Shown here: piece by piece, positions 1 through 51,686 of the stretch
How positions within the stretch are numbered: position 1 is the stretch's first letter
Layout of the letters: every line of letters begins with the position of its first letter
IMG/VR virus record: IMGVR_UViG_3300030376_005178
Origin: an uncultured virus (IMG/VR IMGVR_UViG_3300030376_005178)
Lineage: Duplodnaviria; Heunggongvirae; Uroviricota; Caudoviricetes
Reading direction: 5' to 3' (one strand)
Length of the DNA stretch: 64,000 bases
The notes under the pieces: generated by a model
Told to the model about the DNA's origin: nothing
Databases searched by the model: none
Seen by the model: only the letters and a program-made list of their open reading frames with translations
Translations under genes and position numbers: made by a program

Positions 1-3000
1 AGTAGGAGCAGTGAAGTTTGCTGTGTACTTAGCAACTCCATACTCTACTCTAAAGTCATCTACCCAACCTGTAACAGCATTTGTTGTACCGTCAAAGTCA
101 GCACCAATTACTAAACCTTTAGATGAACCATAATCTGTAGTATCTGAAGTCTTAATACCTCTCTGAGTACCATCAACGAATAGTCTTGTGTCTGTACCAT
201 CTCTTGCGATAGCATAGTGCTTCCAAGCACCAGTAGCAATACCAGCACCAGATCCAGTGATAGCAGTTGTGTTACCAACTCTTAGGTCAACTTCACCAGC
301 AGCACGGTAAGCAAGACTTAAACCAGCAGTGTCAGATCCATTTGTTCTTAAGTCAAATAGAGTAGCACTAGAGAGTCCAGTTGTATTTGAGTATGCCCAG
401 AATTCAACTGTGAAGTCTGTGTTAGTACCAAATCCAAGATCTCCGCTAGAAGGAACACTGATAGAATCATTAGTACCATCTAACTTAAGTGATGCAGTAC
501 CAAACTTCTTAACAGAGGTGTCTAGTTGAGCACCATCATTAAATGTTACTGTCTTAGCAGTTCTGGAATTAAGAACTTCAAATCCAGTTTGCTTACCAGT
601 TACCTCTAAGTAAGTACCATCATAGTTAGAAACAACAGCAGTACCTAATCCAGTAGTACCATCAGTATCGTAAAGAGTAACAGTGTTACCAGTACCAACT
701 GTGGTAATACCAGTCAATCTTAATCTTGTCTTACCTGCAGAGTGGATACCAGCAGTTCCTGATACACCCTTAATCGCTTCAGAAGCAAAATAGGTGAATG
801 CGTTTAGGTACTCTACACGAGCACCGTTGGTCATTACAACACCCTGACTGTTAGGAACAATGAATGTAACCTCATTGAACAGCATCGCTGCCTCAATCGA
901 TCCTGAGGCAATCTGAGAACCATCTATATAAGCACCACCACCAGCAATGTATGATGATGGGTTAGAATCTGCAGAACCATAACCATATGGATCTGTAGCA
1001 GTTATATTACTACCTTTATTGAATACAGTTACACGCTGAACATATGGAGATCTGCTAGTAATAGCAATACCAGGTTGGAATTTGAATGCAAATCCTTCAT
1101 TCTCTGATGTATTAAAGTAGATATCAGCAATAGTTAAGTCTTCAACAACTGATCTATCGTTTAATAAGAATGCGTCCTTCTGTCTATAGTTGGCATCAAA
1201 TGGTATAACCTTAGTTGCACGAAGACCATTACCCTTAACAGTTACTCCCTTAGGAACTACTATTGGTAATTGCTCTGCATATACACCACCACCAATATTA
1301 ATTGTCTCATTTACTCCCCATGTCTCTGCTTTCTTACCAACATTAACTTCAAATGTAGTAGAGTTTATGATCCTAATAGAAGTTGTTACTCCAGAAATAG
1401 GGTCAGTTGCACGAGGATAACCATTAGTAGATGAGTATCCATCATAAGCACACTTGAAGAAGAATTTATTATCTACAAGTTTAACAGTATCACCCTCAGA
1501 TAATCCGTGAGGACCATTACAAATTACACCAAAATTACCACTGTGAGCATCATAGTATGTACCATTATCAGCTGACAATCCCTGTCCAACCTTAGTACCA
1601 CTCATGATCAGAACAGCACCAGGTGAATATCCACCAGCCCAAGTATGTTCGTAACAATCTGTTAGTTTAGCAATAGCCCACTTAATAGTCTTAAATGGTC
1701 TATCAGCACTACGACCACGAGAAACTTCATGATCGTCAACACCATGAGTATCAACATACCATACATCATCAGCAGGGTTAACAGTAGCAATACCAATCTG
1801 AGCAGGTTCTTTCCATACTAGTTCTCCAGAACCATTAGTACTCAACATATGCTGAGTATTAACACCAACAACTCCAGTAGAGTCATATAGTGAAGTTACA
1901 TAACCAGCACCAACCTTAAGATTTACAATATCTGCATTATTAACATCAATGACACCTGTGAAGGTTGCTGCAGTAGCAACAACGACATCAGTAACTGCTA
2001 ATCCAGTCAAGGATAAACTATCAGCACTTAAGTTAGTAACATGTGCCGTTGTAATAGTAGCATAAGTACCAACTAGAGATGTTACAACACCAGCAGTAAT
2101 CTTACCATCAAGAATATCAGCAGCATCTAAATGTGCTGTACCATCAATGTAAAGATCCTTCCATTCTTGAGTAGGAGCACCAAGGTTATAAGTATCGTCA
2201 TCATCAGGAATGAAACTAGAATCGATGTCAGCATTGAATACAATAGCATCGCTAGTAGAATCACCAAGACCAATTACACCACCTTGGAAAGTAACATTAC
2301 CAACGAAAGTAGATGCACCACCAACTCTGAAATCTCTTTCTACATCTAGACTATCGTTTAAGTCAACAAATCCAGTTACAGTAGCAGCACCAGATACTTG
2401 AATATCAGTAACAATACCAGAACCTATTGTGGCGGTTACAATATCAGCAGTATTAAAATCAACTGTCGTAATGGTCGCTGCAGTACCGACAACATCAGTA
2501 ACAGCAATTCCAGTAAAACTTAAATTATCAGCACTAAGAGTTGTTATATGTGCTGTTGTGATAGTAGCGTAAGTACCTACTAAAGAAGTAATAATACCAG
2601 CAGTAACTTTAGCATCAAGAATATCTGCAGCATCTAAATGTGCAGTACCATCAATGTAAATATCTTGCCATTCTCTATCTTCAGTACCTAGATCGTAAGT
2701 ATCATCAGCAGCAGGGTTAACTATCTGGTTAAATGTCCAAGCATTTCTTGATAGATCCCAATTAATAGTTTTGTCTGTAGTACCTTTAAGAGTTATACCA
2801 CCATCAGAAGCACTAGCATCACTAGGAGATCCAGTAGTAGTTACACCAAGTTCAATGTTTTTATCATTGACTTGCATAATTTGGGACTGAAGGTAAGACA
2901 TATTACCTTCAACATTAAGGTCACCCTTAATGAGAGTATCTCCAGTTACAGTTAAAGCACCACCAACTCTTATATCTCTAGTAACATCAACATCAGTAAT

Positions 3001-5385
3001 AGTTGCATAAGTACCAACTAAAGATGTTACAACACCAGCAGTGATCTTACCGTAAACGGCATCCATGTAATCAAAGTCTGCCTGAGTGTAAGTAACACCG
3101 AAACCAGACAGAGATGTAACAACACCAACTGTAATGTATGCATTAGTTGTAAGACCAACTTCATTGCGAAGATTGGTTATATCAAAGTCAGTTGCTAAAC
3201 CAGCAACAATCTTTGCTTGCTCAATATCAGCATTGATAAAGTCAACACTCTGAATAGTAGCAGCAGTACCAACTTGAACATCAAAGTTTAAGTCATCAAC
3301 ATAGGCAACACCATCAATGTGAATATCTTTCCACTGCTGAGTAGCACTACCAAGATCGTATGTATCGTCATCATCAGGAATAATATTAGAATCTACATCC
3401 GCATTAAATACGACATTATCAGTTATAGAATCACCAAGACCAATTGTACCACCATTGAATGTTACATTACCAGTGAAGGTGGTTGCACCACCGACTCTAA
3501 GGTCATTGGTAATATGTAAATCTTGAGTTGTTGAATAAGTACCAACCCAAGATGTTGAAATACCAGTGGTAATCTTAGCAAAGTTAATATCACCATTTTC
3601 AGAATCAAATACTGTTATCGTTGCATAAGTACCAACTTGAGATGTGATGATACCAGCAGTAATATATGCAGCTTCTATACCAGCACTATTGGTATCAATA
3701 ACTGGAAGAGTTGTAACACCAGTAATGTTGACATCACCATCCACATCGAGGAGGGCTGTTGGCGTGGTGGTCCCGATTCCGACCCAACCTTCCTTGTCAC
3801 CAGAAATCCACTTAACATCACCTGAACCAATTATTAATTGATCATCTTGCTCTGGATATCTAACATCTTGTCCTTTACCAATGATAACATTGTTACTACC
3901 AGTATTATGAGTACCAGCAGAGTTACCAATAGCAATATTGTCGTTACCGAAAACATTGTATAGAGCAAACGCACCAATAGCAATGTTATTGCTCTGGTTA
4001 GTTGATATACCAGCACCCCATAGTGCTTCTCTACCTATACCAATATTCTGCTCGTGATCTTCCTTACCACTATTTGTTGTGATACCTGATCTTATAACTA
4101 AGAATCCATAAGTATCTGTTAATCCAATAGTACCAGTGGATAGGTAGATAGCATCACCAACATCAGATAATAAACCAAAATCATCCTGTCCTTTAACTGT
4201 AAATTGCTGACCAATTAATTTTGCTAAGTGAGCATTAGTACAAGTACCAATATTAAATGATAGGTTACCAGTAACAGCATTGTTAATTGTTCCTAGGTCA
4301 CCTAGTTGGTCAATAGCAATTGCCCAGTCACCACCCTGTAGGTTAGCGAAGTTATCTGTAGAACCATAGACTCTGTAATCGTATGGATCATTTGAAAGTG
4401 AACTAGTGTCAGAGAATGAAATACTACTGACATCACCAGTCTCACCATAAGTGATAATAGACTGTGAACCTAAATCCTGTCCAACCTTGTCACCAATATA
4501 GATGTTATGTGAACCTTCTGCTTCTTGTCCTGCAAAGTTACCAAAGAATATATTAGAATCTGCTTTAGTTACACCACCCTTTTGGAAGGCACTTTGACCA
4601 ATAGCAATGTTTCTCTTAGTTTGAGTTCCTAAACCAGCCTGATTACCAGCCCAGTTACCAATGAACATACCCTGACGATCAGTACCGTCAGTTTCTAATT
4701 TACCTGCTTCTCTACCAATTCTTATTAATTGCGTTCTGAAATCGTAGTTATTCTCAATAGTTGAGATACCACTGATTGTTAAATTTCTAGTTGTAGTAGC
4801 ATGACTTACATTGATCTGCTCAAACTGTGCAGATGTAGAATTGAAATCATTAAATGTAGCACCAACACCAGCAAGAGCACTGATAAGACCAACTCTGTTT
4901 TGTAGATAAGGGGTGTCAAATACTCCAGTAACATTAAGAGTGGGTGCAGTTGCAACACCAGTTATATTCCAATTTCTTGCGTTTACTTCATCGTATGTTA
5001 AATCGCCTGTAACATCTAAATTACCAGCAACAGATAGATTTCCTGATACAGTGGCTGCAGCACCTACTAGAAGGTCTGTAGCTACACTCCAGGTGTCAAT
5101 CTTACCTGATGGGTTAAGAATAACTGCTTTAGATGCAGTTGGTTTACCGAAGTCAGCAGGGTTATCTGGTAACATATCGGTGTAATACTCACCACCGATT
5201 GCTATAGGAGCATTTGTATTACCGTCTGGATGACCAATATATAATTTCTTGTAAGACTTACCAGCACCTACATTTGTAATATCATAGGTGTATACTAATT
5301 CACCAAACGATACACCAGTTCCAACTGGTGCTGCGGTAGGAGGTGAAGTTCCTTTAGTCCTTTTTAAAAGAATCGTTGCTGACAT
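1..5385 (-). CDS. Large tail fibre / virion fibre protein (>1795 aa, runs off the left edge; absent from the ORF track)
   Basis: ATG at 5385 overlaps the upstream stop (TAATG). It reads MSATILLKRTKGTSPPTAAPVGTGVSFGELVYTYD...KKLYIGHPDG, an Mtd_N-like fibre N-terminus. The same frame at position 1 reads GWVDDFRVEYGVAKYTANFTAPT (LamG/concanavalin-like end). Both ends and sampled internal stretches translated by hand; not every codon checked. Confidence 0.85.
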   Translation of the reverse strand, partial: MSATILLKRTKGTSPPTAAPVGTGVSFGELVYTYDITNVGAGKSYKKLYIGHPDGNTNAPIAIGGEYYTDMLPDNPADFGKPTASKAVILNPSGKIDTWSVATDLLVGAAATVSGNLSVAGNLDVTGDLTYDEVNARNWNITGVATAPTLNVTGVFDTPYLQNRVGLISALAGVGATFNDFNSTSAQFEQINVSHATTTRNLTISGISTIENNYDFRTQLIRIGREAGKLETDGTDRQGMFIGNWAGNQAGLGTQTKRNIAIGQSAFQKGGVTKADSNIFFGNFAGQEAEGSHNIYIGDKVGQDLGSQSIITYGETGDVSSISFSDTSSLSNDPYDYRVYGSTDNFANLQGGDWAIAIDQLGDLGTINNAVTGNLSFNIGTCTNAHLAKLIGQQFTVKGQDDFGLLSDVGDAIYLSTGTIGLTDTYGFLVIRSGITTNSGKEDHEQNIGIGREALWGAGISTNQSNNIAIGAFALYNVFGNDNIAIGNSAGTHNTGSNNVIIGKGQDVRYPEQDDQLIIGSGDVKWISGDKEGWVGIGTTTPTALLDVDGDVNITGVTTLPVIDTNSAGIEAAYITAGIITSQVGTYATITVFDSENGDINFAKITTGISTSWVGTYSTTQDLHITNDLRVGGATTFTGNVTFNGGTIGLGDSITDNVVFNADVDSNIIPDDDDTYDLGSATQQWKDIHIDGVAYVDDLNFDVQVGTAATIQSVDFINADIEQAKIVAGLATDFDITNLRNEVGLTTNAYITVGVVTSLSGFGVTYTQADFDYMDAVYGKITAGVVTSLVGTYATITDVDVTRDIRVGGALTVTGDTLIKGDLNVEGNMSYLQSQIMQVNDKNIELGVTTTGSPSDASASDGGITLKGTTDKTINWDLSRNAWTFNQIVNPAADDTYDLGTEDREWQDIYIDGTAHLDAADILDAKVTAGIITSLVGTYATITTAHITTLSADNLSFTGIAVTDVVGTAATITTVDFNTADIVTATIGSGIVTDIQVSGAATVTGFVDLNDSLDVERDFRVGGASTFVGNVTFQGGVIGLGDSTSDAIVFNADIDSSFIPDDDDTYNLGAPTQEWKDLYIDGTAHLDAADILDGKITAGVVTSLVGTYATITTAHVTNLSADSLSLTGLAVTDVVVATAATFTGVIDVNNADIVNLKVGAGYVTSLYDSTGVVGVNTQHMLSTNGSGELVWKEPAQIGIATVNPADDVWYVDTHGVDDHEVSRGRSADRPFKTIKWAIAKLTDCYEHTWAGGYSPGAVLIMSGTKVGQGLSADNGTYYDAHSGNFGVICNGPHGLSEGDTVKLVDNKFFFKCAYDGYSSTNGYPRATDPISGVTTSIRIINSTTFEVNVGKKAETWGVNETINIGGGVYAEQLPIVVPKGVTVKGNGLRATKVIPFDANYRQKDAFLLNDRSVVEDLTIADIYFNTSENEGFAFKFQPGIAITSRSPYVQRVTVFNKGSNITATDPYGYGSADSNPSSYIAGGGAYIDGSQIASGSIEAAMLFNEVTFIVPNSQGVVMTNGARVEYLNAFTYFASEAIKGVSGTAGIHSAGKTRLRLTGITTVGTGNTVTLYDTDGTTGLGTAVVSNYDGTYLEVTGKQTGFEVLNSRTAKTVTFNDGAQLDTSVKKFGTASLKLDGTNDSISVPSSGDLGFGTNTDFTVEFWAYSNTTGLSSATLFDLRTNGSDTAGLSLAYRAAGEVDLRVGNTTAITGSGAGIATGAWKHYAIARDGTDTRLFVDGTQRGIKTSDTTDYGSSKGLVIGADFDGTTNAVTGWVDDFRVEYGVAKYTANFTAPT
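2019..3500 (-). repeat. Internal coding duplications within the fibre gene
   Basis: ~150-bp near-duplicates at ~2019-2167 and ~2527-2675 (both contain gcagcatctaaatgtgc..gtaccatcaatgtaaa). Further partial copies at ~3001-3050 and ~3310-3500, the latter similar to ~2140-2330. Confidence 0.75.
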
Positions 5386-41326: not shown

Positions 41327-41675
41327 AGATTACCTCACCATAAATTGCATTTTGAATGATCCAATCTGCCATGTCACTATCACAAACTGTTTGGTCACTA
41401 TCTACAATATAACCGAACACTTGATGTCTATAGCTAATATGTAATTTCACATCTTTCTTACACTCTGCTATACTAATTATGGACGCTTCAATATCATCTT
41501 TAGTCAAAGTATGTGTTAATTCTTGTTCACAATCATGGAAAGTTACGCTAGAATAATCATCAGCAATATCCATTTCATCTGCCCAATAGTTACATCCATA
41601 ACCTGCCATTTCTAATATATTTTCTAACTCTTCATCTGATAATGTGTATTCAATTGTTAATGTTTTAGTCATCAA
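41319..41675 (-). CDS. Acidic hypothetical early protein
   Basis: 118 aa, GCNYWAD...DSDMADWIIQNAIYGEVIYG. Confidence 0.7.
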   Translation of the reverse strand: MMTKTLTIEYTLSDEELENILEMAGYGCNYWADEMDIADDYSSVTFHDCEQELTHTLTKDDIEASIISIAECKKDVKLHISYRHQVFGYIVDSDQTVCDSDMADWIIQNAIYGEVIYG

Positions 41676-42106
41676 TTAATCCTCCAAAAATCATATCCAA
41701 AGTTAGGATCTTCAATCTTATCATAATCAAATCTAATTGCTGAATCCCATGTTGCCTCGTAATCTATTACTAACCATGATGGAATATCACAATCAATTAG
41801 TTCATTATCATCAATAAATTGCTCTACTGATTCATAGTTTCCTTGATACAATTCATCACAACCTTGTACATATTCAATGCCATTATCATCAACCCATCTA
41901 TCAATTACTTCCTTACCATCATCACAGAAAATGTTATTTACTGCATCAAGATAGTCCTCTACATATTCTATTTTGTCTTCACCATAAGTATCAACGAAAT
42001 CAATAAGTTCATCAAGTTCATAACTATATTCTGATAATTCTTCTATCTTTTCAACAACTTCTTTGCTGAAAACTTCTTTGTAATTAGATGTCATTGTTAC
42101 AGGCAT
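41672..42106 (-). CDS. ArdA-like antirestriction (DNA mimic) protein
   Basis: Very acidic; C-terminal YQGNYESVEQF...IPSWLVIDYEATW resembles the ArdA Y.G.y.s..dF...ip.....iDye motif. Confidence 0.55.
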   Translation of the reverse strand: MPVTMTSNYKEVFSKEVVEKIEELSEYSYELDELIDFVDTYGEDKIEYVEDYLDAVNNIFCDDGKEVIDRWVDDNGIEYVQGCDELYQGNYESVEQFIDDNELIDCDIPSWLVIDYEATWDSAIRFDYDKIEDPNFGYDFWRIN

Positions 42107-42108
42107 GG

Positions 42109-42285
42109 TTAAATTTCCTCTCCAAGTTTGTTGAATTGTTTGTTAATTAGTGGTACAATTAATGTGCCGTCTGGTTTTAACATTGATAACATATTGTTGA
42201 ACCATTCATTATTTAAATGATGTTCTTCAAATGTTAATTGATAATCTTTCATGTAAGATTGTGACCATTCGTGATGATATGCCAT
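42109..42285 (-). CDS. Small hypothetical protein (58 aa)
   Basis: MAYHHEWSQSYMKDY...MLKPDGTLIVP...FNKLGEEI*. Confidence 0.6.
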   Translation of the reverse strand: MAYHHEWSQSYMKDYQLTFEEHHLNNEWFNNMLSMLKPDGTLIVPLINKQFNKLGEEI

Positions 42286-42901: not shown

Positions 42902-43318
42902 TTAACCCCTCCTTAAATATAACCAACCACCTGCCCAATCACAGTTCTCATATACATATTCACGCTCTTTTATGATCCTTAAATCATAACGAACATTCTT
43001 AAGTGGTGATTTCCATGATGCAGGTTTGTGAACTTCACCTGTATTCTTATTAACGAAGCAGTGAACACTTGTATCTACATATTCACCATCACGCCATTCT
43101 GCTTGATTAATTTTATAATATTTGCGTCCTTCTCTAATAACAAATATGGTCAACTTCTCTGCACCTGACTTAATTCTCTTTAATCTTTTTTCAGCATACT
43201 CTGATGTGAATGTTTCCAAACTTTTAACAGTATACCTTCTGTATTGAGAATTAAGACGGTTTACGAGTTCGTCTGTCCATTCTGAGACTAACTCTGGAAC
43301 TGTTCTGGTTTGGGTCAT
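42902..43318 (-). CDS. Conserved phage hypothetical protein
   Basis: GRKYYKI...SVHCFV.K.TGEVHKPASWKSP...RYDL pattern; has its own early promoter. Confidence 0.75.
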   Translation of the reverse strand: MTQTRTVPELVSEWTDELVNRLNSQYRRYTVKSLETFTSEYAEKRLKRIKSGAEKLTIFVIREGRKYYKINQAEWRDGEYVDTSVHCFVNKNTGEVHKPASWKSPLKNVRYDLRIIKEREYVYENCDWAGGWLYLRRG

Positions 43319-43345
43319 TAAGTACCTTTATTTGTTTACATACTT

Positions 43346-43403
43346 ATTATAACTCAGCAAATGCCTCTGTCAGTCCATTGTGTACCACTTTGTTCGTTGG
43401 CAC
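43346..43403 (-). promoter_or_regulatory. Early promoter with 8-6-8 palindrome
   Basis: CTGACA-16-TATAAT; GTACCACT-ttgttc-GTTGGCAC at 43382-43403. Confidence 0.7.
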
Positions 43404-44321
43404 ACGCTCATCAATTAGTGTATTATATTCTTTGTGCAGTTCACATCCTATATAATGCCTACCCAAATCCTTTGCTACCATTGCGGTTGTGCCACTTCCC
43501 ATGAACGGATCTAATATAATATCACCCTTTTCTGATCCTGCTGTAATACATGGTATAATTAAATCGGGTGGAAATACTGCAAAATGAGCACCCTTATAAG
43601 GTTTATTTGTTATACTCCAAACTGACCTTTTATTCTTTGTTGGATATGATTTAGTGAGTCCAGTATGAGGATTTAAACCTGTACCTTTATTGTGATATTT
43701 GCCGTTAGTTCTATCTCTAGTTCCCCAATCTTTAGCTGGTTCTTTAATACTTTCATTGTCATAATAGTATTTCTTGTTCTTACTTAAGAGGAATAAGTAT
43801 TCGTGGGATTTTGTACATCTATCTCTTACACTTTCAGGCATTGGATTAGGTTTATGCCATATAATATCTTGCCTTAAGTACCATCCATCTGCCCTCAATG
43901 CAAATGCCAACATCCAAGGAATACCAATTAAATCTTTCTCTTTTATACCCTCTAATTTATTACCTCGTCTTGCACATTTGTCTGGTAAATCTTGTTTAGT
44001 ATTAGACACAGTTTGTTTAACTAATGCTTGACCTTTTCCAGGTCTATAGTTATAATAACTGTCCCCAATGTTTAACCACAATGTACCATCATCAGCAAGA
44101 CAATCCTTGACCTTAGATAATACTTTAACCATCTCTTGAATATATTCTTCAGGTGTTTGTTCTTGCCCTATTTGACAATCTTCCCCACCATAATCACGCA
44201 AACCGTAATAAGGTGGGGAAGTAACACACATCCTAGGTTTATCACATATACCAATGGTAATTTGTGATTTTAAAGTATCAAGAGTTTGGCGACAATCGCC
44301 ATATAAAATAGTATCTTTCAT
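43347..44321 (-). CDS. Amino-DNA methyltransferase, beta class (SPPY suggests N4-cytosine)
   Basis: Catalytic TSPPY near the N-terminus, HFAVFP, SAM-binding DPFMGSGTT near the C-terminus; TGATG coupling gives the start at 44321. Confidence 0.9.
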   Translation of the reverse strand: MKDTILYGDCRQTLDTLKSQITIGICDKPRMCVTSPPYYGLRDYGGEDCQIGQEQTPEEYIQEMVKVLSKVKDCLADDGTLWLNIGDSYYNYRPGKGQALVKQTVSNTKQDLPDKCARRGNKLEGIKEKDLIGIPWMLAFALRADGWYLRQDIIWHKPNPMPESVRDRCTKSHEYLFLLSKNKKYYYDNESIKEPAKDWGTRDRTNGKYHNKGTGLNPHTGLTKSYPTKNKRSVWSITNKPYKGAHFAVFPPDLIIPCITAGSEKGDIILDPFMGSGTTAMVAKDLGRHYIGCELHKEYNTLIDERVPTNKVVHNGLTEAFAEL

Positions 44322-44473
44322 CAATTAAGATTCACTCTTTTAATATCAACATCACCATATTGTTCCTCTACTATTCTTTTAGCAGCATCATAATTTGTTG
44401 CTGGAACTTCAACATCAATCAAACCCATATCGTTACGATAAAATGTAACTGTGGCAGTACGATAAGCAGACAT
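44321..44473 (-). CDS. Small hypothetical protein (50 aa)
   Basis: MSAYRTATVTFYRNDMGLIDVEVPATNYDAAKRIVEEQYG... Confidence 0.6.
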   Translation of the reverse strand: MSAYRTATVTFYRNDMGLIDVEVPATNYDAAKRIVEEQYGDVDIKRVNLN

Positions 44474-44487
44474 AATTAATAATTAGA

Positions 44488-44670
44488 TTAGGTAGATGGT
44501 GGTGTAGTAGATGGAACAGTTGTCATACATTTAATCATTTCAATGTCACAACCTAAGGTGTTTTGTATTCTATTTTTAGCAGCAGTTGGTGTGCTTGCTT
44601 TAACTTCTTCAGTGTAATGTTTCTTACCTGATGGTAACTTTCTATAAGTTACTTGTTGAATAAATGCCAT
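44488..44670 (-). CDS. Small hypothetical protein
   Basis: 60 aa directly after the helicase. Confidence 0.6.
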   Translation of the reverse strand: MAFIQQVTYRKLPSGKKHYTEEVKASTPTAAKNRIQNTLGCDIEMIKCMTTVPSTTPPST

Positions 44671-44671
44671 T

Positions 44672-45907
44672 TTAATAAGCGAATGAGTGTGCAGTTAGAC
44701 CATCTTCAAAGATCAATTCTATTAACTTTTGAAGACGATTACGAGTAGCAACAGATGATTTACTGTTGATAGGTACAGTTACAACACCATGTTTCTTATG
44801 GTATTGTTTAACATTACCTGCTTCAATCGTATCATTATGTATATTGTTATAATCATATTTATGAAGACGGATAACCCTTCCAATCGTTTGTGCCATCTCA
44901 ATAATAGGTAGATTTCTTAATAAAATAGTATGAGTTAATCCTGGAACATTGATACCTTCAGATAATATTGAATAATGAAATAATACAAACTTTCTATTAT
45001 CATCATCACCCCATTCTTTCAAAGTATCAAAGAATACTTGACGATTAACTTTAGTTTTATTAATATATGCACCATGCTTACTTGTAATGTGCATTATATC
45101 ATAACCCTGCTTTTTTAGGGATGATATAATATTACTTTTAGTCAGCATATTCCATAATATTGTAGTATTAGGGGCAGCAACTAAGATCTTAGGTGATAGC
45201 TCTGACTTGATATTCTTGATGATATTTAATATCACCTTCTTATCAATTTCAGGTGCATTATATTTTGTTCTAGTCTCATTTGTCTCATGTATATCAATTA
45301 GAGGTGCTAATATTGTGCCATTCTTAACAAGTTCAGGTGCAGGTACACTAATTAAAGTATTACCATAAACCTCTGAATTGTTCATGCCTCGTTCATTATT
45401 ACCTCGTGAATATTTGGGTGTAGCAGTAAAGAAATAACTACTATTTGACTTTACTGTTGATATACCTACAAAATGATTTTTAGATGTAGAGTTATGTGCT
45501 TCATCACAATATAGTACATCAATGTTAACCATTGAATCACATATTTTATGCAATGAATGATAAGTAGTGAAGATTAATTTATCATATTGTGGATGACGAC
45601 TCACCCAATTTGTGATAAACTCAGGTTTAGTTTCTCTATCATACTTAGTTTCACCACTATGTACATGCAACACCTTAACTTGAGGAACTTCAGTAATAAA
45701 TTCATCACATAATTGTTGTGCTAATAATATTCTAGGTGCAACAATTACAGCAGTTAATGGTGTATGTGCTGGTACATTAATTCTACTCTTTAAATCCTCA
45801 ATCATAATTGCAGTTTTGCCACCACCAGTAGGGACATAAATGCACCCCTTATTTGATAGTTTCATTGCTTCAATAGCACGAGACTGATGTGATCTAAGTT
45901 TTTTCAA
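44672..45907 (-). CDS. Superfamily 2 (ResIII/DEAD-like) helicase/ATPase; probable TTG start at 45907
   Basis: LRSHQ (Q motif), PTGGGKT, DEAH, TAT, LSEGINVP and QTIGRVIR. The track start at 45964 lies inside the upstream structured RNA. Confidence 0.88.
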   Translation of the reverse strand: MKKLRSHQSRAIEAMKLSNKGCIYVPTGGGKTAIMIEDLKSRINVPAHTPLTAVIVAPRILLAQQLCDEFITEVPQVKVLHVHSGETKYDRETKPEFITNWVSRHPQYDKLIFTTYHSLHKICDSMVNIDVLYCDEAHNSTSKNHFVGISTVKSNSSYFFTATPKYSRGNNERGMNNSEVYGNTLISVPAPELVKNGTILAPLIDIHETNETRTKYNAPEIDKKVILNIIKNIKSELSPKILVAAPNTTILWNMLTKSNIISSLKKQGYDIMHITSKHGAYINKTKVNRQVFFDTLKEWGDDDNRKFVLFHYSILSEGINVPGLTHTILLRNLPIIEMAQTIGRVIRLHKYDYNNIHNDTIEAGNVKQYHKKHGVVTVPINSKSSVATRNRLQKLIELIFEDGLTAHSFAY

Positions 45908-45930
45908 TAGTAGATTATATGTAAAGAATG

Positions 45931-46090
45931 TGTCGAGGGAACGGGGCATCAACATAGGTTTCACCTATATGCCCAAATTTACCTACTGGGAATCGCTTAC
46001 ACCTGAACCCCTACTACATCAATTACTGCAGAGGCATTATCCATGACTGCAGGTGATGTTTCGGGCAGTAGAACCGCTTATCCCTCAACA
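45931..46090 (-). ncRNA. Candidate ~160-nt structured RNA (ncRNA or helicase 5' leader)
   Basis: 5' and 3' ends pair over 10 bp (one G-U on the minus strand); internal helices; begins at the predicted +1 of the promoter at 46096. Confidence 0.7.
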
Positions 46091-46095
46091 TATTC

Positions 46096-46153
46096 ATTAT
46101 AGCAATAAAAAACCCCCTGAAAGGGGGTGAGGTGTCAGTTTATTGACCGTCAC
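46096..46153 (-). promoter_or_regulatory. Early promoter with 8-6-8 palindrome
   Basis: TGcTATAAT at 46096-46101; GTGTCAGT-ttattg-ACCGTCAC at 46132-46153. Confidence 0.75.
46107..46128 (-). terminator. Intrinsic terminator after the basic protein gene
   Basis: CCCCC-tttca-GGGGG followed by TTTTTT. Confidence 0.75.
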
Positions 46154-46452
46154 ACATTGAAGTGTGACTTATAAGATTTGGTAGCATACTGATAGAAACT
46201 AGAAAGAGATTTGTTAGCTAATTGTAAACCTTTTTTGCAATCATCCAAGAATAATGTAAACTCATAGTTATGAATTTTAACTCTTGACTGATAGTCTCTC
46301 ACATAATGGTTGAGAGTTAAAACTGTTTTAGCAGGTCTCTTTAATTTCTTCGGTGTTACCTTAGTAACAGACTTTGTAGAAGTTGTTGTTACTTTGCGAG
46401 TGCGTCTTTTGCGTGGAGTAGTTGTTCTCTTTGCAGTAGCAGCAGTTGGCAT
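46150..46452 (-). CDS. Arg/Lys-rich basic protein, possible RNA-binding protein
   Basis: N-terminal AKRTTTPRKRRTRK...PKKLKRPAK; lies between the large RNA and a terminator. Confidence 0.7.
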   Translation of the reverse strand: MPTAATAKRTTTPRKRRTRKVTTTSTKSVTKVTPKKLKRPAKTVLTLNHYVRDYQSRVKIHNYEFTLFLDDCKKGLQLANKSLSSFYQYATKSYKSHFNV

Positions 46453-46474
46453 AATGTAGGTTAATGTAAACTAT

Positions 46475-46954
46475 AGGGATGTTAGTTCTTTCTTCGGTAG
46501 CGAACCGAGAGGCACATCCATCTCCTCGTTTTTGTGTGTAGGACTTACAGGGCGTAATTTCTCTGCTGAACAGAGACAACCATAGACCCTTGCCTAAATG
46601 ATGTGGGACTTACAACTTCAAAACTGTCTTTTCAGATGTCTAGGACATCAGCAGTACAAGAGGTCTCCAAACATAAAGAGCAGTTTTCCACAGAATGAAT
46701 CAAAGATCATCTGATTGTTGCTCACCCCTGCCTTGCGTTTGCCCAGATAAGGTGAGTGGGGCAGAGAGTAATTTCGTGCTTTCTCTTCTTAGAAGCAGTT
46801 CACGAATCTTTAGACCTCCACGCTGTTTAATCAGGATTCTAACCTGACCCCACATAGGTGAGAGAAAACAAAACTGAGGGGACAGTTGCATTACCTTGAC
46901 ATCATGTGACTGCTTCTAAGTCAGTCTAGTCAGGAACCTCGTTTGTTTTCCCAT
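46475..46954 (-). ncRNA. Candidate ~480-nt large structured RNA
   Basis: At least nine nested helices plus a perfect 12-nt loop-loop complement; first helix starts within 2 nt of the predicted +1; no convincing ORF. Confidence 0.72.
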
Positions 46955-46960
46955 ACATGT

Positions 46961-47018
46961 ATTATAGGGCATCAAGGTCGTTGTGCAACTTTCTCTGTGA
47001 CACTTTCTCAACTGGTTC
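46961..47018 (-). promoter_or_regulatory. Early promoter with 8-6-8 palindrome driving the large RNA
   Basis: TTGCAC-16-TATAAT; GTGACACT-ttctca-ACTGGTTC at 46997-47018. Confidence 0.75.
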
Positions 47019-47357
47019 TTCATAGAATATCTTATTATTATATCCTATCATCAAATGTTTCCATGATTTGTTATCACCATGCTCTAGAATTTGATAGACT
47101 TCTTCTATACTTTCAGCACCTTGATTTGTTGTCCATCTTCTACTATACCATGAATTACCAATATCAAATGTATATCCTTTTGCTAATAGTTCATCAATAA
47201 ATGGATCATCATGGTTAATTATAACTCTAGACCTAAATTTAGGGTCTTGATTATTCTTTCTAACATAAACTGTCTTGCCACCATCAGGCGACTCATAAAT
47301 GTTGGTGTCTTGTTTAACACCTCTATTCATAACATTAGCAAATAGTTTATCTAACAT
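46962..47357 (-). CDS. Hypothetical protein
   Basis: 131 aa with an IYESPDGGKTVYVR motif. Confidence 0.7.
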   Translation of the reverse strand: MLDKLFANVMNRGVKQDTNIYESPDGGKTVYVRKNNQDPKFRSRVIINHDDPFIDELLAKGYTFDIGNSWYSRRWTTNQGAESIEEVYQILEHGDNKSWKHLMIGYNNKIFYEEPVEKVSQRKLHNDLDAL

Positions 47358-47623
47358 TAGTAAAACCTCGGTTGATTTACTTCTACTTCAATAGTATTAA
47401 ATAATCTATTAAGTGAGTTGGCATATGATCTATAACCACTACCAACATATAGTTGACCTGCTACTACTGAAATAGTTGCTATACCCCAAAAGATATAATA
47501 AAATCTGGATTTAACCTGATTTCGTTTTTTCTCAGGTCTCCAGTCAGGAATTGGTGCAGTCATTTGTCTCCATTGATATTTTATTATTATAGCATACATT
47601 AATAAGATCAACAACCACATCAC
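47357..47623 (-). CDS. Small membrane protein
   Basis: FYYIFWGIATISVVAGQLYVG transmembrane segment; start uncertain. Confidence 0.65.
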   Translation of the reverse strand: MMWLLILLMYAIIIKYQWRQMTAPIPDWRPEKKRNQVKSRFYYIFWGIATISVVAGQLYVGSGYRSYANSLNRLFNTIEVEVNQPRFY

Positions 47624-47870
47624 AGGTATCAGGATAATCTAATTTATCTTTAAAATGATCTTGTACTGTGAACCCAATATCATCCAATGCTTCACCATAA
47701 CATTGTTTTATATTATTAATAATATCTTCAATCTGTTTAAATGCAACATCATCCATTACAAACTTATGTTTATCAGGATGTAACTTAACCTCATTAATTA
47801 AATGATCTAATTGTTCCATTTGGAATAAATCCAATCCAATGTTAATCTTATTCATCAAATTCACATCCAT
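47544..47870 (-). CDS. Hypothetical protein
   Basis: 108-aa ORF within the operon; start uncertain. Confidence 0.55.
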   Translation of the reverse strand: MDVNLMNKINIGLDLFQMEQLDHLINEVKLHPDKHKFVMDDVAFKQIEDIINNIKQCYGEALDDIGFTVQDHFKDKLDYPDTCDVVVDLINVCYNNKISMETNDCTNS

Positions 47871-48087
47871 CAGTTATATAAAACATATCATATATTTTAG
47901 CTAATGCACCATTAATAAACTCTTGTTTATTATTTTCACTATTAAATATGTGAACACTTTTAAATTTAGTATCCCAATCCTCTTTCTTATTTGATAATAA
48001 CTTAAGAGATTCAAATATCATATCCCACTCTTCATCTGTAAAATATTCTCTAAGATATAAATGTTTAGCATTTTTAAGATACTGCAT
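47848..48087 (-). CDS. Hypothetical protein
   Basis: 79 aa, LREYFTDEEWDMIF. Confidence 0.6.
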   Translation of the reverse strand: MQYLKNAKHLYLREYFTDEEWDMIFESLKLLSNKKEDWDTKFKSVHIFNSENNKQEFINGALAKIYDMFYITDGCEFDE

Positions 48088-48799
48088 TGTAATTAATATT
48101 ATAAATGTGAAACATCATAGAATGATAACCACTATTATATTTCTTACCACTACCTTTCATTTGTAAATGGAATAGTTTCCTACCATCTGCAATTCTAAAC
48201 TCAAGAGTTGTATCATTGAGTGTCCATCTGCCTCCTTTAACCTGTTTCTCTATAGTTTCTACTGGAACCATTCTAATTATTTCAGATCCTTTAGTATGAA
48301 ATATCATAGTATCAACTGCATCACCATTATATCCTTGCTTAACAATAACATCAAAAATTGCACACTTGTTTCTATTCATCCATGTTACAAAAGAACTGCA
48401 AATTTTCTTCTCTATATTATTTTTATAGACCCTATTCTGCTTTATCTCCATAGCAGATAGAGTTAACTCAGGATGTCTCTCTTCTACAATAGATTTTAAT
48501 TCTTTATTATAATATCCAAAGAACATATCAAGGAACTGTTTATTATTTCCTTTAATCTTAAAGTGTTCAATGAAACCTTGAGTAGATAATAATGCTACTT
48601 GAGTATGATTCTTTGACATACTCTTACAAGAATATTTCCTCTTGTTGCCATTAATTTCATATATATCTACTTTAGTTTGAGATCCACCATCAACTACATG
48701 CTCACCACCAAATAATTTAGTAAATGTTGCAGCAATGTGATGCTCGAACTCATGTCCTTTTTTCTTGGCATTTTTACCAGCAGTCACAGCAGCAGTCAT
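48074..48799 (-). CDS. PD-(D/E)XK restriction-endonuclease-like nuclease (start revised from 48823)
   Basis: GHEFE helix, TKVDI, YSCKS and LQMKG, as in type II REase-like proteins; the -10 box overlaps the track's ATG. Confidence 0.6.
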   Translation of the reverse strand: MTAAVTAGKNAKKKGHEFEHHIAATFTKLFGGEHVVDGGSQTKVDIYEINGNKRKYSCKSMSKNHTQVALLSTQGFIEHFKIKGNNKQFLDMFFGYYNKELKSIVEERHPELTLSAMEIKQNRVYKNNIEKKICSSFVTWMNRNKCAIFDVIVKQGYNGDAVDTMIFHTKGSEIIRMVPVETIEKQVKGGRWTLNDTTLEFRIADGRKLFHLQMKGSGKKYNSGYHSMMFHIYNINYNAVS

Positions 48800-48821
48800 A
48801 TCGGATCGTTTAGGTATCTTC

Positions 48822-48879
48822 ATTATAGTTTATTATTATATTAGATGTAGGGTAGAGTGGACAGTTCCTTAATTGACTC
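48822..48879 (-). promoter_or_regulatory. Early promoter with degenerate 8-6-8 palindrome
   Basis: TATAAT at 48822-48827; TGGACAGT-tcctta-ATTGACTC at 48858-48879, the same 36-nt offset as other copies. Confidence 0.6.
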
Positions 48880-50334
48880 AAGAAATTGCTTATGGTCTAC
48901 ATATTCAAACTGTTTCTTAGAGTTCTCAATAAATTCATGCTGATCTTTAGCATCTTTCAATAAGTCTCCACTATTCTTTCTTGATAAAGCATAATCTTTA
49001 ATTGCATCTTTATTAAACATATGAATACCATTCATTACTTGTATATAATTATCATGTCCCCAATAGTCTAACATATCATCATTTCTAAAGAGATCTAAGA
49101 ACTCATGTTTACATTTTTGTTCCATAGTTCTAACCCATTTAGTTTTATTATTAGTCATATGTCTCCAAAATGGTGAATCATCTCTATTTGTACAATAATG
49201 TAAATTAAGGAATTGAGAATAGTCAAAGAATATTCTATTTTGTACCATATTAAATCTATCTCTATTATAATCTAAGTTCTTTAATGTAGAATTAATACTA
49301 ACAAATGTCTCAACCATAAATGTTAAGTATTGATGTGTTAATGCTTCTAATGGTTCAATAAAACCACCTGATAAACCCACTGCTACACAGTTACCAATCC
49401 ATGCCTCCTTCCAATGTCCAGTCTTCCATTTAATTATTCTATCTGACTCTAATTGTACACCATGATTATCATTTAACCATCTATTATAATCTTCCTTTGC
49501 TTCATCATCAGATGTAAATTGTGAAGAATATAGATAACCAGTACCAAATCTTTCTTGAGTAGGTATCTGCCAAATCCAACCATTTTGTGTTGCTTCAGAT
49601 AAAGTATATGTTGGTATCTTACCAGTATTGTTATTAACTAATTGAGGTATTGCACTATCAATAGGTAGATGTTGTGATAAATCTACCCACTCTGGATTTA
49701 ATTCATTTAATAATATAGATTTAAACCCACTAGCATCAACAAATAAGTCTGCATGATAATTACCAGTATTCTTACCTGTAACACTCTGAATATTCTTACC
49801 ATCAGATGTTACTCTTGATATTACATCAGGTATTAATGTTACTCTATCCTTTAAATAATCAAATAAGAAATTACATAGTTTATCAGTTGTTATATGAAAA
49901 GCATAATGATAACCTGTTAATTTATTAGGTATTAATGTATTAGCTTTATTCCAATTAACACCACCATTATATGTGTTATTTAATAATGAATGAAAGGCAC
50001 TATAATTATCTGATAGATCATCATTCTGTTGTTCACTACTATCACATGTTACTTGACCAAATCCATGATAATATTCTTCATTAGGAATCCAATTCTTAAA
50101 TAATACTCCTAACTTAATCGTTGCATCTAATTCTCTAATAGCATCCTCAGTTGTGTATCCTAAAGTATCATTGAACACATCAATAAAACTAGGTGTTGTT
50201 CCCTCACCTACACCAATACTTTGATTATCAGGATCATATATGAGAGATATATTAACACTATCACCCCAGTAATTCTGCATAATTGCAGCAGTAACTAACC
50301 CAGATGTTCCACCACCAACTATAACTATTTTCAT
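48841..50334 (-). CDS. Flavin-dependent tryptophan-halogenase-family protein
   Basis: GGGTSG FAD motif, IGVGEGT, ATIKLG (catalytic Lys region), FVDASGF, GWIWQIP and FIEPLE; ATGA coupling gives the start at 50334. Confidence 0.9.
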   Translation of the reverse strand: MKIVIVGGGTSGLVTAAIMQNYWGDSVNISLIYDPDNQSIGVGEGTTPSFIDVFNDTLGYTTEDAIRELDATIKLGVLFKNWIPNEEYYHGFGQVTCDSSEQQNDDLSDNYSAFHSLLNNTYNGGVNWNKANTLIPNKLTGYHYAFHITTDKLCNFLFDYLKDRVTLIPDVISRVTSDGKNIQSVTGKNTGNYHADLFVDASGFKSILLNELNPEWVDLSQHLPIDSAIPQLVNNNTGKIPTYTLSEATQNGWIWQIPTQERFGTGYLYSSQFTSDDEAKEDYNRWLNDNHGVQLESDRIIKWKTGHWKEAWIGNCVAVGLSGGFIEPLEALTHQYLTFMVETFVSINSTLKNLDYNRDRFNMVQNRIFFDYSQFLNLHYCTNRDDSPFWRHMTNNKTKWVRTMEQKCKHEFLDLFRNDDMLDYWGHDNYIQVMNGIHMFNKDAIKDYALSRKNSGDLLKDAKDQHEFIENSKKQFEYVDHKQFLESIKELSTLPYI

Positions 50335-51686
50335 ACACATTTATAACCAATAACACCAAAATCTTCAGGTGGGTCAATGTTACCTAAAGTCTTAAAATAT
50401 TTAACATAAGGAGCACCTAATCCGATAGAATATTCATAAAACATATTAGAATTATTCATCCAATCATACGGTAATATAGTTTCACCTGTAGCATTTTGAT
50501 TATGATGTGCTATTCTATAATCATCATCACTAAATGAATCACTTAATATACTATCTAAAAACTTTTTACCTGCAAATACACCTGGATGAGAGAAACAAGG
50601 ACTATTTAAGTATTCTATTGCTGCATCTTTTGTATTCTGCCAGAACTTAGTATCATATCTTGATCCATATTGATATGAAAAACATATGAATGATTGTAGT
50701 GTTTGAATAATATAATTACTGTAGGTTAATTGTAACATATGATCGTGTTCTTCTCTTTCTCGTGCATTATCATTGAACAAATATCTACATATTTGTTCTG
50801 AAATAAAGAATGAAGATTCTGCACTTGATCCAGGACTTCCTGGTTCGATATTAATTAACGCTGTACCATTCCGAATATATCTTTTATTATCTGGATGAAT
50901 TACATAGTTAGATATTTTTGGTGTCCATGTGTGTGAGTATATTTTATACTGATCAAAATCCTCATCAGGAAATACTAATTTAAAATCCTCTCTAACATCC
51001 TCTTCTGTTGATATATTACTATCATACAAATAAACCCATCTTTGCATATTACCATAAGGTAAACCAACAATATGTCCATACTTAGCAGCATATTCTATAG
51101 TATAATTCCATTCACCTTTTGTTGGTTTCTCTACAATTACAGCACTATTTGTAAATGTAACACTAGGATTCATGTAGTCATCTTCCCATCCTAATGGATT
51201 CTTCTCAGTACAATCAATAACATAATCATATTCATCTCCATTAATAAGGCATTTTTCCCCACTTACTTCAAATGAATCAATTTTCTGCTCAATTACAGAT
51301 ACACCTTCCCCAAATATTGATCCACCGTCTTTAATAAATTCTTGTCTAAACTTTTCAATATTAAATGTATTACTACATCCTTGAACCATAAAGTTCTTAT
51401 CTCTTCTCGTACCCCACCCAACATATTTGTATCCACAACTATCCACACCATCACAATACTTTTCTAACCATCTCTTAGTAAAGTATATCTCTCTTTCTAA
51501 TACTTCCTGAAATGCTACACCTGCACCACTTAACATAAATGGGTGTACTTTATCAGGATCATGTATCAATGTATATTCATCATCACCAAAATCATCTATA
51601 CCATCATATCTTTTATTATTAATTAACAGTGCCAACTGCATGAATCCCTCCATAGTTGCACCAACAATAGCTATCTTTCTACTCAT
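50331..51686 (-). CDS. Divergent halogenase-fold protein
   Basis: Same overall layout (IAIVG, YVIDCT, INIEP, YDTKFW) but GxGxxG and WxWxIP are degenerate. Confidence 0.65.
   Translation of the reverse strand: MSRKIAIVGATMEGFMQLALLINNKRYDGIDDFGDDEYTLIHDPDKVHPFMLSGAGVAFQEVLEREIYFTKRWLEKYCDGVDSCGYKYVGWGTRRDKNFMVQGCSNTFNIEKFRQEFIKDGGSIFGEGVSVIEQKIDSFEVSGEKCLINGDEYDYVIDCTEKNPLGWEDDYMNPSVTFTNSAVIVEKPTKGEWNYTIEYAAKYGHIVGLPYGNMQRWVYLYDSNISTEEDVREDFKLVFPDEDFDQYKIYSHTWTPKISNYVIHPDNKRYIRNGTALINIEPGSPGSSAESSFFISEQICRYLFNDNAREREEHDHMLQLTYSNYIIQTLQSFICFSYQYGSRYDTKFWQNTKDAAIEYLNSPCFSHPGVFAGKKFLDSILSDSFSDDDYRIAHHNQNATGETILPYDWMNNSNMFYEYSIGLGAPYVKYFKTLGNIDPPEDFGVIGYKCV

Follow-up and report, generated by a model that had tools for sequence, protein, structure and literature searches.

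Layout of the locus

The stretch of DNA analysed here, referred to as the window, comprises 64,000 nucleotides (nt) of an uncultured tailed virus (IMG/VR record IMGVR_UViG_3300030376_005178). Our subject is a locus on its minus strand, between positions 47018 and 44672, where one gene-free stretch precedes a gene for a basic protein of 100 amino acids (aa) and another precedes a gene for a superfamily 2 (SF2) helicase. An earlier note on this DNA had proposed that a large RNA, the Arg/Lys-rich protein, a small RNA and the helicase act together as a four-part ribonucleoprotein (RNP) system. We found that both stretches are built from conserved RNA modules, and in all likelihood these modular leader RNAs are independent of the 100-aa protein and of the helicase.

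The window belongs to a T4-like cyanomyovirus, with DNA similarity to Prochlorococcus and Synechococcus myoviruses and matches to 340 phage records. The best matches were to P-SSM7, P-TIM68, P-SSM2 and the single-cell 'Marine virus AG-345' records. The neighbouring genes (N6_N4 DNA methylase, tryptophan halogenase and DUF7717) are typical of such phages. The features of the locus, including its open reading frames (ORFs), are as follows, with the evidence for each in brackets.

47357-46962, minus strand: ORF131
46966-46961, minus strand: TATAAT -10 box for the long leader, overlapping the stop codon of ORF131 (sequence reading)
46961-46453, minus strand: long gene-free stretch (~480-nt leader)
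46952-46857, minus strand: module A, a 96-nt RNA (covariation)
46853-46756, minus strand: module G (blastn, and pairs read by eye)
46756-46597, minus strand: module B, ~155 nt (blastn conservation)
46596-46539, minus strand: module C1, a ~57-nt hairpin (compensatory switches)
46528-46471, minus strand: module C2 with the palindromic hexamer (covariation)
46452-46150, minus strand: gene of the 100-aa basic protein (homologue family)
46128-46096, minus strand: terminator-promoter piece TP (terminator scan, and identity in relatives)
46128-46112, minus strand: intrinsic terminator hairpin with T run (terminator scan)
46104-46096, minus strand: TGcTATAAT, extended -10 (sequence reading)
46095 to ~45908, minus strand: second gene-free stretch (~155 nt)
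46088-45933, minus strand: DE RNA, the "small RNA" of the earlier note (covariance model R1)
45907-44672, minus strand: SF2 helicase, probable start TTG 45907 (Pfam, PHROG)
between helicase and methylase, minus strand: ORFs of 60 aa and 50 aa
44324-43347, minus strand: N6_N4 DNA methylase (Pfam)

The sequence, the ORFs, Pfam and the terminator scan bore out the minus-strand order of promoters, RNAs, genes and terminator that the earlier note had given. The G+C content was 0.41 at 46001-47000, compared with 0.29-0.33 on either side. The program-called ORFs inside the gap matched no Pfam or PHROG family, the sole match being to one Pfam family below threshold.

Conserved modules in the gene-free stretches

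Comparison with relatives by blastn split the non-coding DNA into the blocks A, G, B, C1, C2, TP and DE. The blocks were 80-100% identical in phages whose helicase gene is 65-78% identical. Their order and genomic place varied among the relatives, and they were found nested within each other's hairpin loops. No phage record covered at least 80% of either gap in the blastn comparison. In S-SSM4 and S-SSM6b, A is flanked by a small gene and tRNA-Val, close to tail/baseplate genes, and in P-SSM7 it follows the dam gene. P-SSM2, which carries A, C1, C2 and DE at 55.8-56.9 kb, has C1 and C2 upstream of gene 070 and DE downstream of it. Self-similarity of the region gave no second copy of any module within the window.

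The fold energies of the single sequences were no better than those of shuffles (z -1.04, 15/100 as good; z -0.45, 67/200 as good), so the evidence for structure is covariation. The covariation counts of DE, A and C2 were far above both controls, namely shuffled sequences and slid pairing partners. On this comparative evidence, conserved RNA structures are formed by the sense strand of A, DE, C1 and C2. These modules recombine freely and lie upstream of many unrelated genes. The earlier note had described two structured RNAs. Both gaps do hold conserved RNA, but the "~480-nt RNA" is not one fold; as judged from the alignments, it consists of five modules in a row (A, G, B, C1, C2), each conserved on its own, which together form the 5′ leader of the 100-aa gene. 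The loci collected from relatives are denoted below by L numbers.

The DE RNA

In the DE RNA, a three-way junction is surrounded by helices P1, P1b, P2, P3 and P4. P3 and P2 are joined by an invariant strand of 20 nt, and the P4 loop is the pentaloop UGAAA. The DE 22-mer GGUGAAACC, invariant and unpaired, was found exactly in at least 121 IMG/VR stretches. The structure was derived by eye before the pairs were counted, and the alignment comprised 33 distinct short-loop forms out of 113 copies with full flanks; the 80 copies left out have longer P3 inserts or are duplicates. In these 33 sequences, 96.6% of the cells were paired, compared with 85.7% in shuffles and 28-58% with slid partners. Both sides had changed in 18 of the 32 pairs, and the covariation score was reached by 0/500 shuffles. 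We also observed conserved G-U pairs, e.g. U23-G74 in 29/32 rows. Such pairs are valid on the sense strand only.

A covariance model (R1) was built from the DE alignment. Its single match in the window spans 46088-45917 (119.7 bits, E 6e-35), and the window copy carries a 51-nt insert in the P3 loop, with the paired core ending at 45933. R1 found one copy each in P-SSM2 and two IMG/VR genomes. It found no DE in P-SSM7 and S-SSM4, though both have A.

Several further details of DE were noted. To the eye, the invariant strand resembles a T-arm (GGUUC...GAUUCC) split by 10 nt. A pseudoknot between the P3 loop and the joining strand UAAAUUUG could form with the commonest loop; by eye, it is not kept in the other loop variants, and the candidate was rejected. 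An additional conserved covarying module (CUGCUGCAACCCCCUUUGGUAGUUUCAGGGUUGG and variants) directly follows DE in L013, L021, L031, L055, L067 and L068, and is absent from the window.

As a compact multi-helix junction with invariant joining strands, a variable peripheral hairpin and a location in 5′ leaders, DE shares its layout with many riboswitches and small ribozymes. DE, and perhaps A, might accordingly sense a ligand or cleave itself, controlling or processing the downstream message. However, no Rfam riboswitch or ribozyme matched at E <= 10, no expression platform is apparent, and the content after DE is very variable, consisting of other modules or diverse genes. Moreover, a close relative (L198) has the same helicase without DE. 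We consider a riboswitch or ribozyme very unlikely.

Module A

Module A is a 96-nt RNA with a 15-base-pair closing helix P1 and two further helices, P2 and P3. Its 3′ motif was present in 45 IMG/VR stretches, and 47 distinct variants of 93-171 nt were obtained across all loci. In the 48 rows formed by these variants and the window copy, 97.1% of the cells were paired, with both sides changed in 13 of the 26 pairs; 0/500 shuffles reached the covariation score. The length differences were confined to the P3 loop, where inserts of 0-78 nt consist of unrelated hairpins and, in several loci, of C1.

Modules G, B and C1

Module G is closed by GUGGGG/CCCCAC, with its pairs read by eye. Positions 46852-46806 were 98% identical in two loci (L035 and L171), and 46805-46761 had no match in the collected loci, i.e. 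the 3′ half of G is unique to this phage. A hairpin of G, CAGG-UUAGAAU-CCUG (46831-46849, minus strand), resembles by eye a tRNA T-arm with one loop change.

Module B is closed by UGGG...CCCA and has a UGUAAGU internal loop. It had near-full-length blastn matches in 13 loci, and four more matched a part or fragment. RNAalifold on nine sequences predicted 37 pairs, five of them changed on both sides, which weakly supports a structure for B.

Module C1 was represented by 36 distinct variants, with compensatory switches in two stems. Its inner stem switches from CUCUG/CAGAG to CUCAA/UUGAG and from AGGGU/GCCCU to AGGAU/GUCCU. In relatives, C1 is nested in the P3 loops of both A and DE, and in metatranscriptome contigs it immediately adjoins the 3′ part of DE. 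A closing motif, 5′ NNGGCA ... UGUAAGUCCNN 3′, is common to B, C1 and other insert hairpins; its NN positions covary (by eye). A reading of the GGCA/UGUAAGUCC internal loop as a K-turn was rejected, since by eye the strand polarity does not fit.

Module C2 and the palindromic hexamer

The C2 hairpin has a GGAUGU/ACAUCC outer stem and a covarying inner stem, and 98.8% of the cells were paired in 46 rows, one N-containing variant having been dropped from the alignment. Directly 3′ of the hairpin lies a hexamer whose three positions all covary as a palindrome. It was perfectly palindromic in 44/44 distinct C2 contexts and occurred in six types: GCUAGC (18 contexts), CCUAGG (7), CUAUAG (7), CCAUGG (6), CACGUG (5) and GCAUGC (1). 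Its centre is CTAG, TATA, CATG or ACGT, and the type tends to track the downstream gene family.

In all but one of the 44 contexts, the hexamer is followed by an ATG at a distance of 15-22 nt. The 43 distinct ORFs opened by these codons fell by eye into ~10 unrelated N-terminal groups, and six of them resemble the 100-aa protein. In the window, the hexamer is CUAUAG (46476-46471, minus strand), separated from the ATG of the 100-aa gene by an 18-nt spacer without a Shine-Dalgarno sequence. The hexamer lies right at the junction of the constant C2 with the variable cargo. A palindrome of six bases is unable to form a hairpin by itself, which points to pairing of two RNA molecules or to a symmetric DNA site. 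A mini-ORF from an AUG inside C2 was considered and rejected: it is open in some loci and stopped in the window, and the changes keep the base pairs, not the amino acids.

Promoters, terminator and orientation

In 52/55 distinct contexts of A, a TATAAT box (at least 5/6 positions) ends 3-10 nt before the conserved GRAAACAAA. A box of the same quality ends 3-10 nt upstream of DE in 58/100 contexts, and 43 of these boxes are TGn-extended. Many DE copies without a sigma-70 -10 box (L017, L021, L059, L082 and others) are preceded by a G-rich element of the form GGGGG...AAAGUGU, together with a short palindrome-like box ahead of UGUGAGGGA. A and DE each start with a helix a few bases after the -10 box, in agreement with the earlier note, which had both RNAs begin with a helix at their predicted +1.

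A consensus promoter scan was uninformative (39 sites, compared with 31.4 +/- 5.3 expected); both real -10 boxes escaped it for want of a good -35. Just after DE lies a second perfect TATAAT (45919-45914, minus strand), which ends 6 nt before TTG 45907. The helicase may therefore also be made from a nearly leaderless transcript.

The terminator at 46128, after the 100-aa gene, is the sole minus-strand terminator in 43000-49000, and the scan placed none between the modules and the genes. In the collected loci, the strand of the anchor module carried all 501 matches to modules and all 116 matches to neighbouring proteins. From the same-strand matches, the upstream -10 boxes and the lack of an intervening terminator it follows that sense messages carry the modules as transcribed 5′ leaders. 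The suggestion that so much non-coding DNA has a function is supported by covarying structured RNA behind early-type promoters.

P-SSM2 and P-SSM5 each have a 100% identical copy of the 33-nt terminator-promoter piece at another site, and the window has no second copy. This identity is one of several features that would suit mainly selfish or recombination-promoting DNA cassettes, which would persist by mediating the shuffling of gene blocks and whose RNA would have no function. Presence and absence of modules differ between close relatives, modules are nested, their distribution among genomes is patchy, and the palindromic hexamer sits exactly where constant C2 meets variable cargo. PeSLs, which are cassettes of a promoter and a stem-loop, have been described as driving modular shuffling (PMC2839356). 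On the other hand, compensatory changes maintain the RNA helices, including the sense-only G-U pairs (A, DE), the orientation is sense throughout, DE was matched once in each of the three genomes or records that gave a hit, and unpaired bases are strongly conserved. Selfish and RNA roles are not exclusive; DNA cassettes of this kind as the main explanation are highly improbable.

Proteins beside the RNAs

The 100-aa protein had 121 homologues at E <= 0.001 and matched phrog_27005 (E 5e-5), with the conserved core KLKRPAK-VLTLNHY-RD-SR-KIHNYE; no Pfam domain was found in it. Judged by this family, the ORF is a real conserved gene. AlphaFold2 predicted a disordered basic tail rich in Lys, Arg and Thr (residues 1-45) and one long helix (47-98), with a mean predicted local distance difference test (pLDDT) score of 74. 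No recognised RNA-binding fold was seen in this model, for which no fold search was made. The N-terminal motif MPTA-TAK..TTPRKRRTRK also heads proteins with different-looking C-terminal parts (L063, L168, L178), and the basic tail may itself be a swappable piece.

The helicase matched ResIII (PF04851, 66.1 bits, E 4.7e-18), DEAD (PF00270, 45.3 bits, E 1e-11) and Helicase_C (PF00271, 28.0 bits, E 2.7e-6), all above the Pfam cut-offs, and it thereby combines the ATPase core and the Helicase_C domain of SF2. It also matched phrog_16 'DNA helicase' (E 3.3e-63) and, weakly, (archaeal) XPB/RAD25 (E 1.5e-4). The listed start, GTG 45964, falls inside the conserved DE RNA. TTG 45907 is the likely start, because relatives align from about residue 1-4 of the shorter form.

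Linkage of the RNAs with the proteins

Linkage was counted from DE-anchored loci, since a single-protein scan with the helicase gave three loci, too few for the reverse count. DE was followed by the helicase N-terminus within 80-700 nt in 6/49 loci (those with at least 1500 nt downstream), and any helicase match within 2.5 kb of DE was found in 12/49. A relative of the 100-aa gene ended within 500 nt upstream of DE in 3/70 loci (those with at least 700 nt upstream). Conversely, R1 found DE in 4/17 loci of relatives of the 100-aa gene, and in 10 of the 14 confirmed loci of such relatives blastn found no module. L198, with a helicase 78% identical, shows terminator, TATAAT, short leader and helicase, with no DE. 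In L031 and L055, the 100-aa gene and DE are kept and no helicase follows DE.

These counts bear on the four-part RNP system, in which each RNA would be the dedicated partner of the protein encoded after it. The basic disordered tail of the 100-aa protein would suit such a role, and the whole arrangement (ORF131, A, C2, the 100-aa gene, the terminator-promoter piece, DE and the helicase) recurs in one close relative contig, IMGVR_UViG_3300020305_000147 (fetched as L073, L153, L185 and L199), and in that contig only. Nevertheless, the linkage counts are low, helicase and DE occur without each other, C2 serves ~10 other gene groups, the helicase is nearest to DNA-repair helicases (phrog_16, XPB/RAD25), and no known RNA-binding fold was recognised in the 100-aa protein. 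Linkage of the parts in relatives was the test that the earlier note had itself named, with independent occurrence as the outcome that would speak against the system, and independent occurrence is what we found. We regard the four-part system as extremely improbable. Judged by linkage, the genes of both proteins are probably ordinary cargo of the leader cassettes, and the proteins are not RNA partners.

Neighbouring genes

The same early minus-strand block contains a gene of the tryptophan-halogenase family (499 aa, 48841-50340, minus strand; PF04820, E 7.6e-85). The 50-aa ORF upstream of the methylase (44321-44473, minus strand) had a weak, sub-threshold DpnD/PcfM-like match (16.7 bits vs a cut-off of 25). 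Genes of 144 aa (MPVTMTSNYKEVF...) and 58 aa (MAYHHEWSQSY...) at 41672-42285 (minus strand) lie in a tight gene string without a C2 leader in the window; their relatives stand directly behind a C2 leader in L198, L056 and L169.

Searches of databases, host genomes and RNA data

The Rfam search proposed in the earlier note was run with Rfam 15 and gave no family for either RNA. In the whole window there were no matches at gathering score, a search that included manA, wcaG, glnA, PhotoRC-II, Yfr, IMES, riboswitches and small ribozymes. At E <= 10, the only match in 45800-47200 was to the long non-coding RNA family MEG8_1 (14.1 bits vs a cut-off of 70, on the opposite strand), which is meaningless. 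The A, G, B, C1, C2 and DE RNAs are absent from Rfam 15 and uncatalogued there. ARAGORN found no tRNA or tmRNA in the window. The literature searched contained no description of these RNAs, and the candidate catalogue of PMC10690425 may list them.

The exact DE 22-mer was absent from one genome per species for 185,579 bacterial and archaeal species. A DE 15-mer gave at least 120 matches in unrelated taxa; with the model, the 100 loci tried scored 16-20 bits, compared with 65-150 for real copies. These matches are due to chance, and a host origin was rejected.

The modules were present in contigs from four marine metatranscriptome runs of three studies. The summed word depth over the 3′ part of DE was 394-4137 in three runs and 23 in the fourth, with the helicase and flanking genes below 60, a contrast that is confounded: depths are summed over relatives sharing the modules, the runs were chosen by these words, contigs only were used, and DNA carry-over is possible. 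The depth peaks were therefore not counted as a measure of abundance, and parts without cover are uninformative. Contigs cannot show RNA ends. The peaks could reflect stable processed RNAs, subject to the same confounding.

These depths nonetheless enter the case for trans-acting early RNAs, in which A, DE and perhaps B would be cut from the leader as stable small RNAs that bind or sequester a host RNA or a conserved host factor such as an RNase, the ribosome or RNA polymerase. In the RNA libraries of the three studies, module contigs reached word depths of hundreds to thousands, far above the values of the flanking genes. The 5′ and 3′ ends of each module are paired, like those of an independent domain, the unpaired sequence is conserved to an extreme degree, as in the DE 22-mer, and in S-SSM4 A lies upstream of a tRNA gene. 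Set against this are the confounded depth contrast, the lack of a terminator or known processing site at the module borders, and the tie of C2 to start codons. A trans-acting role seems unlikely to us.

Probable portable leader cassettes of early genes

The explanation that we favour overall, and which is probable rather than firm, is that the modules are portable leader cassettes of two early transcription units. The first unit would consist of the promoter, A, G, B, C1, C2, CUAUAG, the 18-nt spacer, the ATG of the 100-aa gene and the terminator, and the second of the extended -10 promoter, DE and the helicase. A or DE would be the 5′-terminal domain, with B and C1 as optional inserts, and recombination would place the modules upstream of many early genes.

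We infer a cis effect of the modules on their own message. The long helix with which A and DE open at +1 hides the 5′ end, and in this way they probably protect the early mRNA from host RNases that depend on the 5′ end. C2, at a fixed distance before start codons without Shine-Dalgarno sequences, would probably set up translation initiation or shield the coding part after upstream cleavage. As the mechanism of the leader modules, mRNA stability and translation are put forward tentatively, at somewhat less than even chances.

Several observations weigh against the leader cassettes as drawn here. The palindromic hexamer after C2 is not explained by a leader acting in cis. The conserved unpaired sequences, GGUAAUGC in A and the 22-mer in DE, exceed the needs of a simple protective hairpin, and their invariance suggests a specific ligand or partner. 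In 42/100 contexts, DE has no sigma-70 -10 box directly upstream. The far higher word depth over the modules than over the genes in the four metatranscriptome runs, confounded as it is, also belongs here. We must also note that the 5′ ends, and any processing or stability, are predictions from sequence in this case, and that the loci were collected by exact-word anchors, which under-represent divergent copies together with their surroundings.

A more specific mechanism, based on a host factor, dimerisation or a ligand, would also be compatible with the invariant unpaired strands and the palindrome. In one such version, A and DE would be two phage-only classes of early RNA whose unpaired strands capture a host machine (5′-end-dependent RNases or the ribosome), and C2 with its covarying palindrome would be a new initiation device for genes that lack a Shine-Dalgarno sequence, working through RNA-RNA homodimerisation 15-22 nt upstream of the start codon, the whole forming a plug-and-play leader toolkit that could be recombined before any early gene. 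We think this version quite unlikely.

The main photosynthetic bacteria of the ocean lose a large share of their number to T4-like cyanophages, whose early gene expression is poorly known. Across hundreds of marine viral contigs, several of the module structures recur exactly or nearly so, and they are recombined like building blocks before many early genes. Their role would show how phages start or protect early expression in hosts that make little use of Shine-Dalgarno pairing, and the modules could be a source of compact, portable RNA parts. The result also sets right the reading of the locus as a four-part RNP system, which is attractive but wrong.

Comparison with known systems

Stabiliser stem-loops at the 5′ termini of bacterial and phage mRNAs are simple hairpins, and in some T4 genes a leader hairpin helps to form the translation initiation region. 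The present modules resemble these in having a helix at or next to +1 (A, DE) and a hairpin a fixed short distance before the start codon (C2). They differ from the stabilisers in the multi-helix junctions of A and DE, whose unpaired strands are invariant, and in the palindromic hexamer added to C2.

The coremin/xrRNA-C element of plant RNA viruses was described by Dilweg et al. (2019) as a hairpin of 3-4 base pairs with a YGAD tetraloop, followed after a conserved spacer of 10 nt by another hairpin (PMC6546385). Like the modules, it is a small structured element of an untranslated region (UTR), proposed to shield downstream RNA. The modules were compared by eye with this published description and showed no such unit, in a comparison that involved no search by pattern or model.

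The PeSLs of T4-type coliphages, reported by Arbiol et al. (2010), join a strong sigma-70-like early promoter to a terminating stem-loop; they occur in many copies per genome in hyperplastic regions and mediate recombination and mini-circles (PMC2839356). The piece at 46128-46096 is similarly a terminator hairpin with a strong -10 promoter between early genes, a correspondence that holds for this 33-nt piece only. The modules of the window also mark seams where gene blocks differ between relatives. As characterised in that report, however, a PeSL consists of promoter and terminator only, whereas the promoter here leads into 100-500 nt of RNA that is transcribed and has covarying structure.

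The nearest kind that we could identify is given by manA (RF01745), wcaG (RF01761), glnA (RF01739) and PhotoRC-II (RF01717), structured motifs in potential 5′ UTRs of T4-like cyanophages (Weinberg et al. 2010, PMC2864571; the S-CREM1 paper, PMC9964418). According to these sources, they come largely from marine sequence and have no proven function, and one genome region can contain a cluster of several (PMC2864571, PMC9964418). Like them, the modules are conserved structured RNAs in cyanophage leaders. Unlike them, the RNAs of the window have no Rfam match, are modular and nested in each other's loops, and stand before many unrelated early genes.

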